NCBI GenBank assembly: GCA_030583765.1 | Contig: CP129474.1 | Span: 73,709-137,708, forward strand | Reading direction: 5' to 3' | Source of the DNA: Minisyncoccota bacterium | GTDB lineage: Bacteria > Patescibacteriota > Minisyncoccia > 2-02-FULL-40-12 > GWA2-44-9 | DNA length: 64,000 bases | Part shown: in pieces, positions 3,171-48,113 of the stretch | Position numbering within the stretch: position 1 is the stretch's first letter | How the letters are laid out: every line of letters begins with the position of its first letter | The notes under the pieces: model-generated | Told to the model about the DNA's origin: nothing | What the model saw: only the letters and a program-made list of their open reading frames with translations | Database searches by the model: none | Position numbers and translations under genes: made by a program

Positions 3171-3917
3171 TTATGCCTCTTTCTCCTTCTTCTTGCTGCT
3201 CTTTGGCGCCGGAGCGTCTTGGGATGTTACATCAGGAACCTCAATCTTGGCAAGAGAACCGAAGTGGTCCGCAAGGATTTCCGAAGCGTTACGGAGTGCC
3301 GCTTCTGGCGTGATAGTGCCATCAGTTACGATCTCCATAGTCACTTTGTTGAAGTCAATGCGGTCGCCGACACGGATGTCGTCGATGCGGAAGTTCACCA
3401 GCTTTACTGGAGAAAAGATTGCATCCACAGCAATAACGCCGATAGGAAGCTTTTCCTTCTGGCGCTGCTCTGTAGGCACATATCCAACACCGCGCTCTAC
3501 GGTAAGTTCCATGCTTACAGAAGCCTTTTTGTCAGTGATGGTGAGGATCGGCTGCTCTGGGTTCACTACTTCCACATCGGCAGGAAGCTTCATGTCCCCT
3601 GCAGTCACAACGCCCTCTCCTTTCGCTTCAAGCACGAGTGTTACTGGGCCATCAGCAAAAGAGCGCAAGCGGATCTTCTTAACGTTGAGAATAATCTGAA
3701 TAGCGTCCTCGAGTACGTGATCAATCGCGGAAAACTCGTGATCGACGCCCTGGATTTTAATAGAAGTTACTGCGGCACCTTGCAACGATGAAAGCAAAAC
3801 GCGGCGCAGAGGATTTGCAACTGTGGCGCCATAACCAGGCATCAAAGGACCAATTTCAAAAACACCGCGAGTATTGCTGCGTTCGATCGTGGTGATTGTG
3901 TGGGGTGTTTGAATCAT
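3171..3917 (-). CDS. rpoA: DNA-directed RNA polymerase alpha subunit, N-terminal domain only (248 aa, no alpha-CTD)
   Basis: MIQTPHTITTIERSNTRGVFEIGPLMPGYGATVANPLRRVLLSSLQGAAVTSIKIQGVDHEFS... is an alpha-NTD. The protein ends in a short KKKEKEA tail. rplQ begins 10 nt after the stop, so no CTD is encoded here. Confidence 0.9.
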   Translation of the reverse strand: MIQTPHTITTIERSNTRGVFEIGPLMPGYGATVANPLRRVLLSSLQGAAVTSIKIQGVDHEFSAIDHVLEDAIQIILNVKKIRLRSFADGPVTLVLEAKGEGVVTAGDMKLPADVEVVNPEQPILTITDKKASVSMELTVERGVGYVPTEQRQKEKLPIGVIAVDAIFSPVKLVNFRIDDIRVGDRIDFNKVTMEIVTDGTITPEAALRNASEILADHFGSLAKIEVPDVTSQDAPAPKSSKKKEKEA

Positions 3918-4001
3918 ACGGGTGTGCGTTGTGATGTTAGGGTGAGCGGTCAGGAGGATTCATGTCGGGAGCGCTCGTATAACTCCACAATGCAACAGAA
4001 A

Positions 4002-4640
4002 TTATCGTGAATAATATTCAATAATCGCCTGCAAATCATCAACCTTCAAACCACTGGCATCCATCTTTGGGATCGTGTTTACCGTCGCAGTCATTGTCTG
4101 CTTATCAAGCGTCATCCATGCTGGCGCTTCATAATTTGCCAACCACTGTGGCATGAGACTACTCATGAACACATTCTTCTTACTGCCCTCGCGGATCCCC
4201 AAAACGTCGCCCTGCGAAACGCGGAACGAAGGGATGCTCACCTTGCGGCCATTCACGGTGACGTGGCCATGGTTTACAAGCTGACGCGCTTGATCGCGAG
4301 ATTGAGCAAGACCCATGCGGAACACCGCGTTATCTAAGCGAGTTTCAAGCGCGGCGATCATCGCATCGTACGGATCCATTTTCTCAGTAAGAGCGCGCTG
4401 AATGATGCTCTTAAACTGCTTCTCCATAAGGCGATAGGTCTTGCGGACCTTTTGCTTTGAACGGAGCTGAAGGCCGAATTCAGAGACCTTTCCAAAGTTA
4501 CCCGTCTTTCCATGTACACCGGGTGGATACGGGCGGCGCACTAATGCTGACTTCTGCGAGTGAGAACGCTCACCTTTTAAGGCAAGCTTTTCTCCTAAGC
4601 GACGCTCAATTTTCTCTCGTGGTCCAAGATATCGTGCCAT
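4002..4640 (-). CDS. rpsD: 30S ribosomal protein S4
   Basis: MARYLGPREKIERRLGEKLALKGERS...S4 domain...GLKVDDLQAIIEYYSR. Confidence 0.92.
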   Translation of the reverse strand: MARYLGPREKIERRLGEKLALKGERSHSQKSALVRRPYPPGVHGKTGNFGKVSEFGLQLRSKQKVRKTYRLMEKQFKSIIQRALTEKMDPYDAMIAALETRLDNAVFRMGLAQSRDQARQLVNHGHVTVNGRKVSIPSFRVSQGDVLGIREGSKKNVFMSSLMPQWLANYEAPAWMTLDKQTMTATVNTIPKMDASGLKVDDLQAIIEYYSR

Positions 4641-4652
4641 ATGTAATAAATA

Positions 4653-5090
4653 TTAGATGCGACGCGGCTTACGAGCGCGAACTCCGTTGTGTGCCACAGG
4701 AGTTCGATCTACGAGTGAAAGAATGTGCAACCCACTCGATGCGATGCCACGGATAGCTGACTCGCGAGCTGGGCCGACGCCGCGAACGACGATCTTGAGG
4801 TTCGCCACGCCATACTTCTTTGACTTCTCGAGACAGTCTTTTGCCACAAGGTTTGCGGCATACGGAGTTGATTTCTTCGTTCCCTTGAACCCAAGGAGGC
4901 CAGAGGATGACCACGAGAGCACGTTCCCCTTCATATCAGCGATTGAGATGATCGTGTTGTTGTATGAAATGGAGATATTCGCAATGCCATTCAACACCTG
5001 GCGCTTTGCGCCACGGCGCACCGGAGCAGCGCCACCTGCTGTTGCGGAAACCTCGGTATCAACTTTTGTGACAATTTTCTTCTTTCCCAT
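4653..5090 (-). CDS. rpsK: 30S ribosomal protein S11
   Basis: ...GIANISISYNNTIISIADMKGNVLSWSSSGLLGFKGTKKSTPYAA... is uS11. Confidence 0.92.
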   Translation of the reverse strand: MGKKKIVTKVDTEVSATAGGAAPVRRGAKRQVLNGIANISISYNNTIISIADMKGNVLSWSSSGLLGFKGTKKSTPYAANLVAKDCLEKSKKYGVANLKIVVRGVGPARESAIRGIASSGLHILSLVDRTPVAHNGVRARKPRRI

Positions 5091-5095
5091 ATGAA

Positions 5096-5482
5096 TTAGG
5101 TCTTTTGGTTTGCATCCTTACGGCCGGAACCCATGGTCTTACGAACATTACCACGCGTTGTGCGAGAATTGCGACGCGTGTTGCCCTTTAACGGCAAGCG
5201 GCGTGCAAGGCGACTCCCGTGGAGGGTGCCGATTTCTTTATAGCGTTTAATGTTCTGTCCGATTTCCTTACGAAGATCTCCTTCGAGCTTATGATCGCGC
5301 TCGAGAATCTTCTGAATGCGGTTGAGTTCATCTGCGCTCAGCTCTTGAGCACGCTTATCACCGTCTACCTTTGCCTCGGTGAGCACCTTCTTGCTTGTTG
5401 CCAAACCTACGCCATACAAATACTGCAGAGCGTAGAGCACTTTTTTATTATCTGGAATTTGAACACCAAAAATACGAGGCAT
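5096..5482 (-). CDS. rpsM: 30S ribosomal protein S13
   Basis: MPRIFGVQIPDNKKVLYALQYLYGVGLATSKKVL... Uses the internal Met at 5482; the upstream extension overlaps rpmJ. Confidence 0.9.
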   Translation of the reverse strand: MPRIFGVQIPDNKKVLYALQYLYGVGLATSKKVLTEAKVDGDKRAQELSADELNRIQKILERDHKLEGDLRKEIGQNIKRYKEIGTLHGSRLARRLPLKGNTRRNSRTTRGNVRKTMGSGRKDANQKT

Positions 5483-33872: not shown

Positions 33873-34637
33873 TTATTTATCAGCCAGTATCTGCTCAATA
33901 GCCGCTTGAAACGTCTCGTATGGTTGTGCTCCCACCAATAGATTGCCGTTGATGAAGAAGCTTGGAGTTCCCGAGACGCCGGATGCGACTCCATCTTTGA
34001 GATCCTTCGCAATCTCTTCGTTATATTTCCCGCTATCTAAACAGGCGTTAAATTCATTCTGCTTAAGCCCAATTTTACCAGCCCAGCGCTTAAGGTCGTC
34101 GCTAGAGAATGAGACCGTCCCCACGCCTTTAGCATCCTGCTCGGCAAAGATAATATCGTGCATCTCCCAGAACTTGCCCTGCTCTTCCGCACACTCACTT
34201 GCGTGAGCTGCTGGAATTGCCGCGGGATGACTCGAGAGAGGAAAATCGCGGAACACAAGACGTACCTTGCCTGTTTCTATGAAATCCTTTTTGAGACGTG
34301 GGTAGGTTTCACGCCAAAACGCACGACAGAATGGACACTGATAATCACTAAATTCGATGATGGTCACGGGCGCCTTGGTGTCTCCTAAAATTGCATCGTC
34401 ATCAACCGATACCTTTGCAGTACGCGGAGAGCCGTCTGCAGGCTGGCGCATATTAGTCCAAATCACCGCACCCGCCACGAGAACACCGGCAAATACAATG
34501 GCTCCGGCGAGAATAAGCTTGTTCACGTCCAAAGGAGGGCGCCCACCCGTAGCATCATGAAAAAAGGGCGCTGGCGCATGCGGTTCGCTGTGCGATTGGG
34601 CTTCGTGGGATTGTGGGTCAATGTGATTCATAGTCAA
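33873..34637 (-). CDS. DsbA-like thiol:disulfide oxidoreductase (CPFC active site), membrane-anchored
   Basis: ...VTIIEFSDYQCPFCRAFW... is a thioredoxin fold with a CxxC. Confidence 0.8.
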   Translation of the reverse strand: MTMNHIDPQSHEAQSHSEPHAPAPFFHDATGGRPPLDVNKLILAGAIVFAGVLVAGAVIWTNMRQPADGSPRTAKVSVDDDAILGDTKAPVTIIEFSDYQCPFCRAFWRETYPRLKKDFIETGKVRLVFRDFPLSSHPAAIPAAHASECAEEQGKFWEMHDIIFAEQDAKGVGTVSFSSDDLKRWAGKIGLKQNEFNACLDSGKYNEEIAKDLKDGVASGVSGTPSFFINGNLLVGAQPYETFQAAIEQILADK

Positions 34638-35500: not shown

Positions 35501-36214
35501 TTATTGCTGCTCGATGACAGCGCGAATACTGTTCAGGAAGCCTTCGCTGGAAGAAGGAGTAAGTTTTTTGCCATTCAGGAAAAAAGATGGCGTACCCGTT
35601 ACTCCCGATGCGACTCCGGAAGCAAGGTCCCGATCAATGCGGGCTTTTGTTGCATCGGCATCCATATCGCGGACGAATTGCTGCGCATTAAGACCAAGTT
35701 GGCGGGCATAGCCTATCATGAGGTCGCGGGCATTCTGTGCATTGGCCCATGCCTGTTGCTGGTCAAAGATAATGCGATGCATCTCCCAAAACTTGCCCTG
35801 GGCACCAGCGGCTTCTGCCGCCTGTGCGGCAAGATTCGCGTTGGCATGAATAGTGCGGAGAGGGAAATGGCGATATACCAATGTAAGCTTGTCTCCAAAT
35901 TCATCTTGTGCCTGCTTAATCAACGGCTCAAACTGTGCGCATGCAGGGCACTGGAAGTCACTGTACTCGACAAGCACCGCGGGAGCGGTGAGCGATCCCT
36001 GGATACGGTCCTCCCCTTCTACAGGAGCACTTGAAAGTGTGCCCGATCCATTTTGAGAAGGTCGATACGTGAGCAAGACGAGCGCGGCAACACTCGCCAC
36101 CATAAGCAGAACCACCCACAGGGTGCCGCTTCCCCGTTGTGAAAAAGGAAATTGCATATCAGTGAGTATACCCTGTCTCGCCACGAAATCAACGTGTAGC
36201 CGACGATATAACAA
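35501..36214 (-). CDS. Second DsbA-like thiol:disulfide oxidoreductase (CPAC active site)
   Basis: ...VLVEYSDFQCPACAQFEP... Confidence 0.8.
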   Translation of the reverse strand: MLYRRLHVDFVARQGILTDMQFPFSQRGSGTLWVVLLMVASVAALVLLTYRPSQNGSGTLSSAPVEGEDRIQGSLTAPAVLVEYSDFQCPACAQFEPLIKQAQDEFGDKLTLVYRHFPLRTIHANANLAAQAAEAAGAQGKFWEMHRIIFDQQQAWANAQNARDLMIGYARQLGLNAQQFVRDMDADATKARIDRDLASGVASGVTGTPSFFLNGKKLTPSSSEGFLNSIRAVIEQQ

Positions 36215-44846: not shown

Positions 44847-45092
44847 TCAGGCCACCTTACGAATGCGTGCTTCTTTTTGCGCTCGTGAAAGCCGCTTGAT
44901 AGCCGCTTCACGTTTGAGCGCGGCACTCCGCGAAGCACACCGTTCTTGATACACCATCCGCAGCGCACCGTGAGCGCGCGTGTAGTTGCCACCTTTCCCC
45001 GCTTTGTGTTCACGCAAACGCCGCGCCACATCGGTGGTGATACCTGTATACAAACTCCCATCACGGCACTTCAGAATATAGACGACGTACAT
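44847..45092 (-). CDS. GIY-YIG nuclease-domain protein (UPF0213/YhbQ-like)
   Basis: MYVVYILKCRDGSLYTGITTDVARRLREHKAGKG... is the GIY...YIG core. Confidence 0.75.
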   Translation of the reverse strand: MYVVYILKCRDGSLYTGITTDVARRLREHKAGKGGNYTRAHGALRMVYQERCASRSAALKREAAIKRLSRAQKEARIRKVA

Positions 45093-46880: not shown

Positions 46881-47093
46881 GGCCTAAAAAGAGAGGAGAG
46901 TATGCCATATTTTTTCACCGCAGTAAAGCGCTTTGGTGTTATCCACAGGAATATTCTTGACGCTCCAAAATAAGAGGCGCAATATTTACATAGGGTCTGG
47001 GAGTACGGAAGTTGTACCGCAAGGGATAGCTGGGCGGCCGTACTGCAAGGGAACGTCGTGGAGTAAGTAAGATTACTCGCGTGCTCTTAGGCC

Positions 47094-47184
47094 CTACAAA
47101 AAACACCACATTGCGTGGTGCTTTTTGTTTCTCTGAAACCGAGATATCTGAGCTGTTCAGTGTTTTAGAAAACCAATACCTACT
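47094..47184. repeat. Copy 1 of a ~90-nt direct repeat: bidirectional terminator hairpin AAAAAACACCAC-attgc-GTGGTGCTTTTT plus ~55 nt
   Basis: Matches copy 2 with about 2 mismatches over about 88 nt. Confidence 0.85.
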
Positions 47185-47185
47185 T

Positions 47186-47464
47186 CTATTCTCCAAATTC
47201 TTTAAGAATCCGCTCCCCAGCACCCGGGCCCAATTCATGGATAAGATCGACAAGTTCTTGATGTGAAAAATGCGAGAGGTCGCGCATGAGCTGGCGCACC
47301 GTCTCTTCAGAAGCCCCTGCAGCTTGTCGTTCGCGGAGCCACACTATTGCCAACGTTGCGAAAGAAAGAGTACTCGCAAGAGAGCGCACTCGTTCTAACA
47401 GAGCTTCGTCCCATGCGTCACCCGAAGAAAGCACTCCTTTTGTATGAGAGATCGGAATATCCAT
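47186..47464 (-). CDS. Hypothetical protein, 92 aa
   Basis: ORF between the two repeat copies with protein-like composition. Confidence 0.4.
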   Translation of the reverse strand: MDIPISHTKGVLSSGDAWDEALLERVRSLASTLSFATLAIVWLRERQAAGASEETVRQLMRDLSHFSHQELVDLIHELGPGAGERILKEFGE

Positions 47465-47509
47465 ATAAAAATAGGGGGCAGTTTTTTGAGATGCCCAGCT
47501 CTCCTCCGA

Positions 47510-47710
47510 CTACTTGTTGCGAAGGTCCACCGTCTGCGGCAGGTCCGTGCGGATGTCCTGCGTGGTCGGCTTGGACTCGTCGTAGTCGATCTTCATGTCG
47601 GTATGATGCGGCTGATCACGCTTGCCTCGATCATCCGTATGGTACACGTCGATGTGCCGCCCGATCGGACTGTCCGAGTCGTGTGGCTTGCTTGCCTTCC
47701 AGAAGCCCAT
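47510..47710 (-). CDS. Small hydrophilic His/Asp-rich protein, 66 aa, GC3-rich
   Basis: AAGGAG SD 6 nt upstream. A TTGATT-16-TATATT promoter lies at about 47745-47780 on the minus strand. MGFWKASKPHDSDSPIGRHIDVYHTDDRGKRDQPHHTDMKIDYDESKPTTQDIRTDLPQTVDLRNK. Confidence 0.5.
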   Translation of the reverse strand: MGFWKASKPHDSDSPIGRHIDVYHTDDRGKRDQPHHTDMKIDYDESKPTTQDIRTDLPQTVDLRNK

Positions 47711-47800
47711 GGGCTTCTCCTTTTCAAAAGAACGACGTTAAACGGCCAAACGTCCTTTCCATAATATAGAATTAATCTTTTAAAAATCAATCCCCCTAGC

Positions 47801-47890
47801 AAACAAAAAACACCACATTGCGTGGTGCTTTTTGTTTCTCTCAAACCGAGATGACTGAGCTGTTCAGTGTTTTAGAAAACCAATACCTAA
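47801..47890. repeat. Copy 2 of the ~90-nt direct repeat
   Basis: See copy 1. The same terminator hairpin and trailing sequence (ctgagctgttcagtgttttagaaaaccaatacct) are present. Confidence 0.85.
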
Positions 47891-48113
47891 CTATGTTTGC
47901 TGAGGCCGAGTGACAAAATAAAGCGAAATGCTTACGAGTCTATATGCCTGAAAGATAGCTAGAATCTAACGAAATAGATACGACCTGCCTGCCGTCAGGC
48001 AGGGATACTGGCTTTCTGAAGCCCTGAAAGTGAGAGGTGGTGAGCTCTACTGCTCAGTGTGGTAATACTATCATATTTCGCTAAAAAAGTCAATACCCTC
48101 TCATGTATGCGTT

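Follow-up and report, generated by a model that had tools for sequence, protein, structure and literature searches.

A strain-variable mini-cassette of two small genes at the duplicated tail of a candidate small RNA in a Minisyncoccota bacterium

Islets and islands lying in the 3' ends of stable-RNA or protein genes are well known, with examples in the att sites of tRNA and tmRNA genes, e14 in icd and the tycheposon islands. Campbell-type integration, a single homologous crossover, leaves direct repeats of the common homology, is reversible and requires no dedicated recombinase, and homology-facilitated recombination following DNA uptake is a comparable known process. The genomes of the CPR/Patescibacteria are tiny, and few mobile elements have been recognised in them. 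The locus described here belongs to a Minisyncoccota bacterium and lies within a 64-kb stretch of DNA, the whole of which is referred to as the window and which makes up about 10% of the 615-kb genome. In this locus an 87-nt direct repeat brackets two small genes, and the repeat is probably the last 87 nt of a candidate small RNA (ncRNA-A), carried on either side of an inserted accessory module with two genes. The features involved are collected in Table 1.

Table 1. Features of the cassette locus, in order of their position in the window.
Feature	Positions	Strand	Description
ncRNA-B promoter-like site	46957..46986	+	TTGACG-18-AATATT; weak, less conserved
ncRNA-B	46992..47130 (body 46992-47095)	+	candidate small RNA of ~105 nt, ended by the copy-1 hairpin
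Repeat copy 1	47096..47182	-	partial duplicate of the 3' end of candidate ncRNA-A
Terminator T2 hairpin	47098-47127		within copy 1
Gene B	47186..47464	-	92 aa; predicted five-helix protein, motif FSKQELIDIIHExGPExG
A-B spacer hairpin	47476..47496	-	GGGCA-N11-UGCCC with T-run
Gene A	47510..47710	-	66 aa; small conserved family, core IGRHIDVYHTDDRGKRDQPH
Cassette promoter	47763..47790	-	TTGATT-16-TATATT; AAGGAG Shine-Dalgarno site after it, before gene A
Repeat copy 2	47803..47889	-	true 3' terminal 87 nt of candidate ncRNA-A
Terminator T1 hairpin	47805-47834		within copy 2
20-nt hairpin in ncRNA-A	47984..48003	-	CCUGCCUGACGGCAGGCAGG; inserted, window only
ncRNA-A	47803..48058	-	candidate rod-like small RNA of ~255 nt; 5' end at ~48058 inferred
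ncRNA-A promoter	48065..48093	-	TTGACT-17-(TG)TAGTAT; extended TG

The initial annotation had described repeats identical at roughly 86 of 88 positions. The repeats are real and the count was slightly off, with 84 of 87 positions found to be identical and the mismatches located at 47135 (G/C) and 47146-47147 (AT/GA); copy 2 is offset from copy 1 by 707 bp. By inspection, the unit is composed of a perfect terminator palindrome and 55 nt of small RNA sequence. The palindrome, with 14-nt arms and a 5-nt spacer, occurs at either end of the insert, and its hairpin, CACCAC-ATTGC-GTGGTG between an A-run and a T-run, receives a terminator score in each copy. It thus qualifies as a predicted bidirectional intrinsic terminator, readable on either strand, in agreement with what had been claimed for each repeat. 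Copy 2 holds T1 together with the 3' strands of both long-range helices of ncRNA-A, and in a relative with an empty site (L007) the repeat segment runs unbroken into the ncRNA-A body. Copy 1 begins 3 nt past the stop codon of gene B, and its hairpin, judged from the sequence, can serve as the end point of two transcripts, that of the cassette (minus strand) and ncRNA-B (plus strand). The identity of the repeat as a small RNA 3' end, as well as the use of the same terminator by a second, convergent candidate RNA, had been missed earlier. The only other internal repeat of the window is a direct pair of ~45 nt, 87% identical and 1.6 kb apart (34138-34181 and 35757-35800).

The region at 47890-48110 had been reported to carry no convincing open reading frame, and no conserved one was found there; on the basis of sequence and folding it appears instead to be the body of the structured candidate ncRNA-A. 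The whole RNA is predicted to fold at -93 kcal/mol (z = -6.8), and in this fold the non-terminator part of the repeat, whose folding had been proposed as a check, pairs with the 5' half of the molecule: 5' ACUGAGCAG with 3' CAGCUCAGU, and 5' AGAAAGCCAGUAUC with GGUAUUGGUUUUCU, the second partner of each pair lying inside the repeat. Across three lineages ncRNA-A is 92-95% identical, against differences at 38-61% of third codon positions in the flanking genes, and this conservation begins at the -35 box, the DNA upstream of the box being unalignable. Indels of 20 nt and 1 nt between the lineages argue that the RNA is non-coding; the former is the 20-nt hairpin of Table 1, which folds as its own stem-loop and is cleanly missing in L002 and L007. 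Among the variable base pairs of ncRNA-A, six still pair and five are broken. In L007, two substitutions in the region of the 3' closing stem convert U-A to predicted U-G, and a G-C to G-U change is seen there too in a hand alignment.

Directly upstream of the ncRNA-A promoter the DNA is variable (48094-48113 in the window, and the syntenic parts of L007 and L008). DUF3977 occupies this position in the window, a 192-aa gene takes its place in the H51 lineage, and in L007 DUF3977 is accompanied by ~230 nt of extra sequence beginning with ATG.

The convergent candidate, ncRNA-B, has a predicted fold with z = -5.6, consisting of a closing stem of ~17 bp and three hairpins, two of which are GCAA-capped. 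Its identity among four sequences is 92-97%, compared with just 73% in the adjoining spacer, and all six of its variable stem pairs still pair, through one-sided changes. No pair in either RNA has changed on both sides, the sequences being too close, and for this reason ncRNA-A and ncRNA-B stay candidates, with structure, signals and conservation as their support. Searches of Rfam 15, at the gathering score and at E<=10, gave no family for ncRNA-A, ncRNA-B or the repeat; the best match, to AgrB, owed its score of 25.7 bits (cut-off 40) to the terminator. An nhmmer profile search of 28 loci plus the window (245 kb) found homologues of either RNA in the three close lineages and in no other. As an analogue of ncRNA-A, the sequence preceding the related module in L016 was considered and rejected, being unstructured (z = -1.35). 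Elsewhere in the window, at 5155-5247 on the plus strand, ARAGORN calls a 93-nt 'tRNA-Stop (anticodon tta)', which is probably a false positive since the Rfam tRNA model is silent there at its gathering score.

The insert itself measures ~620 bp and comprises a promoter, gene A, an attenuator-like hairpin and gene B, all on the minus strand, an orientation that the initial annotation had not recognised. The promoter and Shine-Dalgarno site described there are present on that strand, before gene A, and with its own promoter, two genes and a repeat copy on either side the insert matches the self-contained transcription unit that had been proposed. The promoter is 90% identical in H51. Both open reading frames are real, and the description of them as GC3-rich applies to the 66-aa gene only (GC3 0.82 for gene A and 0.43 for gene B, with neighbours at 0.48-0.61). 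The hairpin in the spacer between the two genes, CUGGGCAnnUCnAnAAACUGCCC, looks like an attenuator or terminator, and if it acts as an attenuator it may lead to more A than B being made. Compensatory changes are found in distant modules (GGACA/UGUCC in L015, AGGCA/UGCCU in L019), and the hairpin with its T-run is conserved at the nucleotide level also in L024, L027, L019, L015, L022, L013 and L020, in modules whose proteins are only 40-60% identical.

Neither protein has a match in Pfam, NCBIfam, PADLOC or PHROGs, nor a significant PDB match by sequence profile, and across these resources no similarity to defence, phage or toxin-antitoxin families was detected; two viral contig scans also gave no match. 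A Foldseek search of the PDB with the gene B model returned nothing significant, while the AF2 model of protein A, at pLDDT 64, was too low for a fold search. A selfish or accessory role for the two genes, for instance an addiction- or defence-like one, is a guess from their patchy distribution.

Three lineages could be compared at this site through cluster members of the neighbouring ABC-F protein: that of the window (with L001, L011 and L012), that of the Patescibacteria MAG H51-bin004_1 (H51; L002, L008-L010 and L017) and L007. A strain comparison for the ~700-bp insert had been suggested, and it shows the insert to be absent in L007 and present in H51. In L007, ncRNA-A continues as ...GAGAAACAAAAAGCACCAC-AATAC-GTGGTGTTTTTTGT and is met directly by AGGGCC..., the sequence of ncRNA-B, with exactly one copy of the unit and with genes A and B absent from the site. 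The empty site was read in L007; five more contigs with the same ABC-F gene are known by their mostly same neighbour genes alone, and given these contigs a collapse of the assembly at L007 is less likely. In H51 this site holds the insert, and gene B there has 94 aa. There the copy adjoining ncRNA-A has the loop GCAAT, and the copy adjoining ncRNA-B has the loop AATAC, as in L007, and retains only the last ~46 nt of the unit; copy 1 of the window is full length with the loop GCAAT. A weak nhmmer match prolonging the short H51 copy into the end of gene B, ~45% identical by eye, was regarded as noise. The difference between 87 nt in the window and ~46 nt in H51 can be explained either by gene conversion from copy 2 or by a loss of ~41 nt in H51.

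A sister relationship of L002 and L007, suggested by shared variants in ncRNA-B, was dropped, as third codon positions in the ABC-F and DHODH genes show three roughly equidistant lineages, a pattern that fits either insertion or ancestral presence followed by precise deletion in L007. The ABC-F relatives in L003-L006 (82-83% amino acid identity) were tried as an outgroup; they have no synteny with the locus, are without ncRNA-A or ncRNA-B and were rejected for this purpose. At 2 kb from the cassette there is an 81-aa stand-alone gene for a GIY-YIG nuclease domain (44847-45092, minus strand). Relatives have this gene whether or not they carry the cassette (L008, L011), so that it appears to be unlinked to it.

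The layout is not an assembly artefact, considering that an independent Logan contig, L001, is 100% identical across 47773-45830 and that the H51 relative shares the same layout. L001 ends 30 nt short of copy 2, and the contigs L011 and L012 start within the terminator. These starts fit the effect of a repeat on k-mer assembly and give a hint, though only a hint, that the site is occupied there as well.

The cassette is far less diverged than its surroundings. Between the window and H51, third codon positions differ by 0.076 in gene A and 0.239 in gene B, compared with 0.49 in the ABC-F gene, 0.54 in the DHODH gene and 0.44 in a 180-aa gene of the flanks, and the flanking genes range from 0.38 to 0.61 over all three-lineage comparisons. 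The A-B spacer is 100% identical between the two, and the codon changes comprise five synonymous and one non-synonymous in gene A and 18 synonymous and seven non-synonymous in gene B. The low divergence of the module, taken with its absence in L007, is most readily explained if lineages have recently exchanged the cassette at a homologous site. Constraint or codon bias (GC3 0.82) could account for part of the low divergence of gene A.

A coherent account can be proposed from these observations. In the uninterrupted state, seen in L007, the candidates ncRNA-A and convergent ncRNA-B abut and have one predicted bidirectional intrinsic terminator in common. In the window, a unit of ~620 bp lies exactly at that terminator, flanked on each side by the ncRNA-A tail and the terminator. 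The candidate ncRNA-A would be kept intact, including its base-paired 3' strand, and terminated at copy 2, and copy 1 would terminate the module and ncRNA-B; one bidirectional terminator having become two, each of the three transcription units would retain a terminator. The earlier proposal of a regulatory element reused at two loci is therefore half right, in that each copy supplies a terminator to a transcription unit. The module may have entered, and spread among related lineages, by recombination at this site, with Campbell-type or homology-anchored recombination as the likely routes and the conserved RNA genes or the terminator as the homology; the RNA genes on either side would offer ready homology arms. 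Recombination between the copies would excise the module exactly, giving the arrangement of L007, and a crossover in the segment AAACAAAAAGCACCAC would explain the pattern of loops seen in H51 and L007.

Additional modules of this kind occur at other loci. Homologues of gene A, with 39-82% identity, are found in Paceibacteria/Minisyncoccia contigs, and gene B has only about 10 remote relatives (alignment A4). The open reading frame downstream of A, where present, encodes a small helical protein; by the criterion applied here it is missing at four loci, and one further contig ends at A. These partners belong to at least two unrelated families (hhalign of alignments A4 and A7, probability 1%). 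The contexts differ as well, with the pair lying between ychF and fba in L015 and adjoining an acetyltransferase gene in L013. Local direct repeats bracket the modules in L016 (39 nt), L024 (107-122 nt) and L013 (51 nt), and the repeats around these other A-B modules are unrelated sequences, namely promoters and 5' UTRs. In L024 a promoter, 5' UTR, Shine-Dalgarno site and ATG are duplicated (3171-3291 and 3890-4011), one duplicate preceding the A-B module and the other preceding the next gene, a short acidic open reading frame recognised by eye. In L013 a promoter-plus-Shine-Dalgarno element of 51-61 nt occurs four times in 5.4 kb (at 1629, 2580, 4291 and 4990), each time before a different small gene, including two copies of the A-B pair, in an array-like layout. 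In L021 an A gene stands alone, and just downstream of it a 61-nt direct repeat (3579-3638 and 4870-4930) encloses an insert of two other genes, namely an 84-aa open reading frame and the gene of a 245-aa HARE-HTH (restriction-endonuclease-type HTH) protein. Only about 10 such local repeats, mostly beside modules, were found in ~186 kb of non-redundant sequence, a count from loci centred on modules and thus from a biased sample.

Taking into account these other loci, the initial interpretation is partly right, and its suggestion of a duplicated or mobilisable cassette is supported by an empty site in a relative, a divergence lower than that of the flanks and other contexts for the gene A family. 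A broader and much more tentative proposal is that small accessory modules of the Paceibacteria may enter at promoters or terminators through a process that needs no recombinase, or is of a kind still unknown, and duplicates 35-120 nt of the local regulatory DNA. If so, insert and resident gene would both keep their signals, and reduced CPR genomes would have a separate way of gaining and losing cassettes, with the A-B pair and the L021 HARE-HTH pair as examples and the locus of the window as one instance, at the common terminator of two new small RNA genes.

Several other explanations of the locus can be weighed against the insertion of a module at the ncRNA-A tail. The one that survives best, unlikely as it is, involves no mobility: the terminator would have been duplicated locally and the copies later homogenised by gene conversion, and the module would be old, vertically inherited and lost in L007. 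Loss between the copies would yield exactly the L007 sequence. The loops differ in H51 (GCAAT and AATAC) and are identical in the window, as would be expected of gene conversion in the window lineage. This account is hard to reconcile with a module several-fold less diverged than the genes on either side of it, and with a gene family that other genomes carry at unrelated loci, there too flanked by repeats.

Movement by a site-specific recombinase, whether integron-like, Xer/dif-module-like or through an integrase acting in trans, with the hairpin as the recombination site, is improbable. A palindrome with 14-nt arms and a 5-nt spacer at both insert ends is what such a site might look like, the empty site is precise, and the switch of loops between the H51 copies would fit a crossover in the left arm. 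The bidirectional terminator, however, fully accounts for the hairpin, and the unrelated repeats of the other A-B modules leave no common site. Moreover, for L007 and L008, the syntenic loci, the Pfam tables cover ~6 kb on each side of the locus and contain no recombinase or integrase, and the cassette has its own promoter. Together with the lack of a visible GTTRRRY box, this speaks against the integron-like module that the initial annotation had offered as an example.

Copy 1 might alternatively be a functional 3' UTR of the module mRNA, whose pairing in trans with the ncRNA-A 5' half would link module expression to the small RNA. Copy 1 does contain the exact strands that pair with this half; its first ~41 nt, where these strands lie, are missing in H51 while the module is otherwise conserved, so that the pairing strands are evidently not required, and the chance that this explanation holds is very small. 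Finally, the view that the unit is a dispersed repeat of the REP-like or MITE-like type, found in two copies here by chance, named at the outset as the finding that would overturn the cassette, has almost nothing to recommend it beyond a hairpin and an intergenic position, given that either half of the unit has two matches in 64 kb (0.00 expected from shuffles), that self-BLAST and an nhmmer profile find no third copy in this tenth or so of the genome, that the two copies lie only 707 bp apart, that a 21-mer from it has one match, at a single place, among 185,579 species-representative genomes (locus L002 of H51) and that in the predicted fold of ncRNA-A the unit is base-paired and belongs to the structure itself.

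The insertion of an accessory module at the tail of ncRNA-A, as the preferred reading, provides a concrete CPR case of accessory gain and loss without an obvious recombinase, in the form of a precisely bounded presence/absence cassette. It draws on one lineage in which the site is empty, two in which it is occupied, and the signs of recent exchange. Two candidate new small RNAs come out of the locus as well, together with a new family of two-gene modules in which a 60-aa protein and the hairpin between the genes are conserved and the partners are interchangeable. For genome annotation, DNA that would pass as 'ORF-free' reads here as candidate RNA-coding sequence, and repeats of this kind break short-read assemblies, as the ends of L001, L011 and L012 illustrate.

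When compared to integron cassettes, the locus shares a small size, a content of one or two genes and a structured repeat as its boundary. It differs in that its repeats are direct copies of host sequence, unlike attC sites, in that the cassette carries its own sigma-70-like promoter, and in that related modules are flanked by unrelated sequences. No intI tyrosine recombinase or attI was seen, the Pfam tables of L007 and L008 listing no recombinase in ~6 kb on either side, and inspection of the unit showed no attC architecture or GTTRRRY box. The two small co-directional genes, with their own promoter, patchy distribution and several contexts, recall type II toxin-antitoxin or addiction modules, which is a resemblance in organisation only. 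In contrast to those modules, a hairpin with a T-run separates the genes, there is no similarity to known toxin-antitoxin, defence or phage proteins, the upstream gene is the conserved one and its partner is drawn from at least two unrelated families.

The closest parallel lies with the islets found in 3' ends of genes. As in these, the 3' end of the target gene forms the direct repeat, one side keeps an intact target, a partial copy lies beyond the cargo and a relative holds a single-copy empty site. The element described here is far smaller, at ~620 bp, with two tiny open reading frames (66 and 92 aa, neither with a family match) as its entire content and no integrase seen in or near it; its target is an uncharacterised candidate small RNA and not a tRNA or tmRNA, and the length of the second copy varies (87 and ~46 nt). 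Campbell-type integration fits the finding that the flanking repeats have a different sequence at every locus, and does not account for the first source of local homology on the incoming DNA. Set beside these systems, the locus is a strain-variable mini-cassette at the duplicated tail of a candidate small RNA, and constitutes a modest but clean example of its kind.
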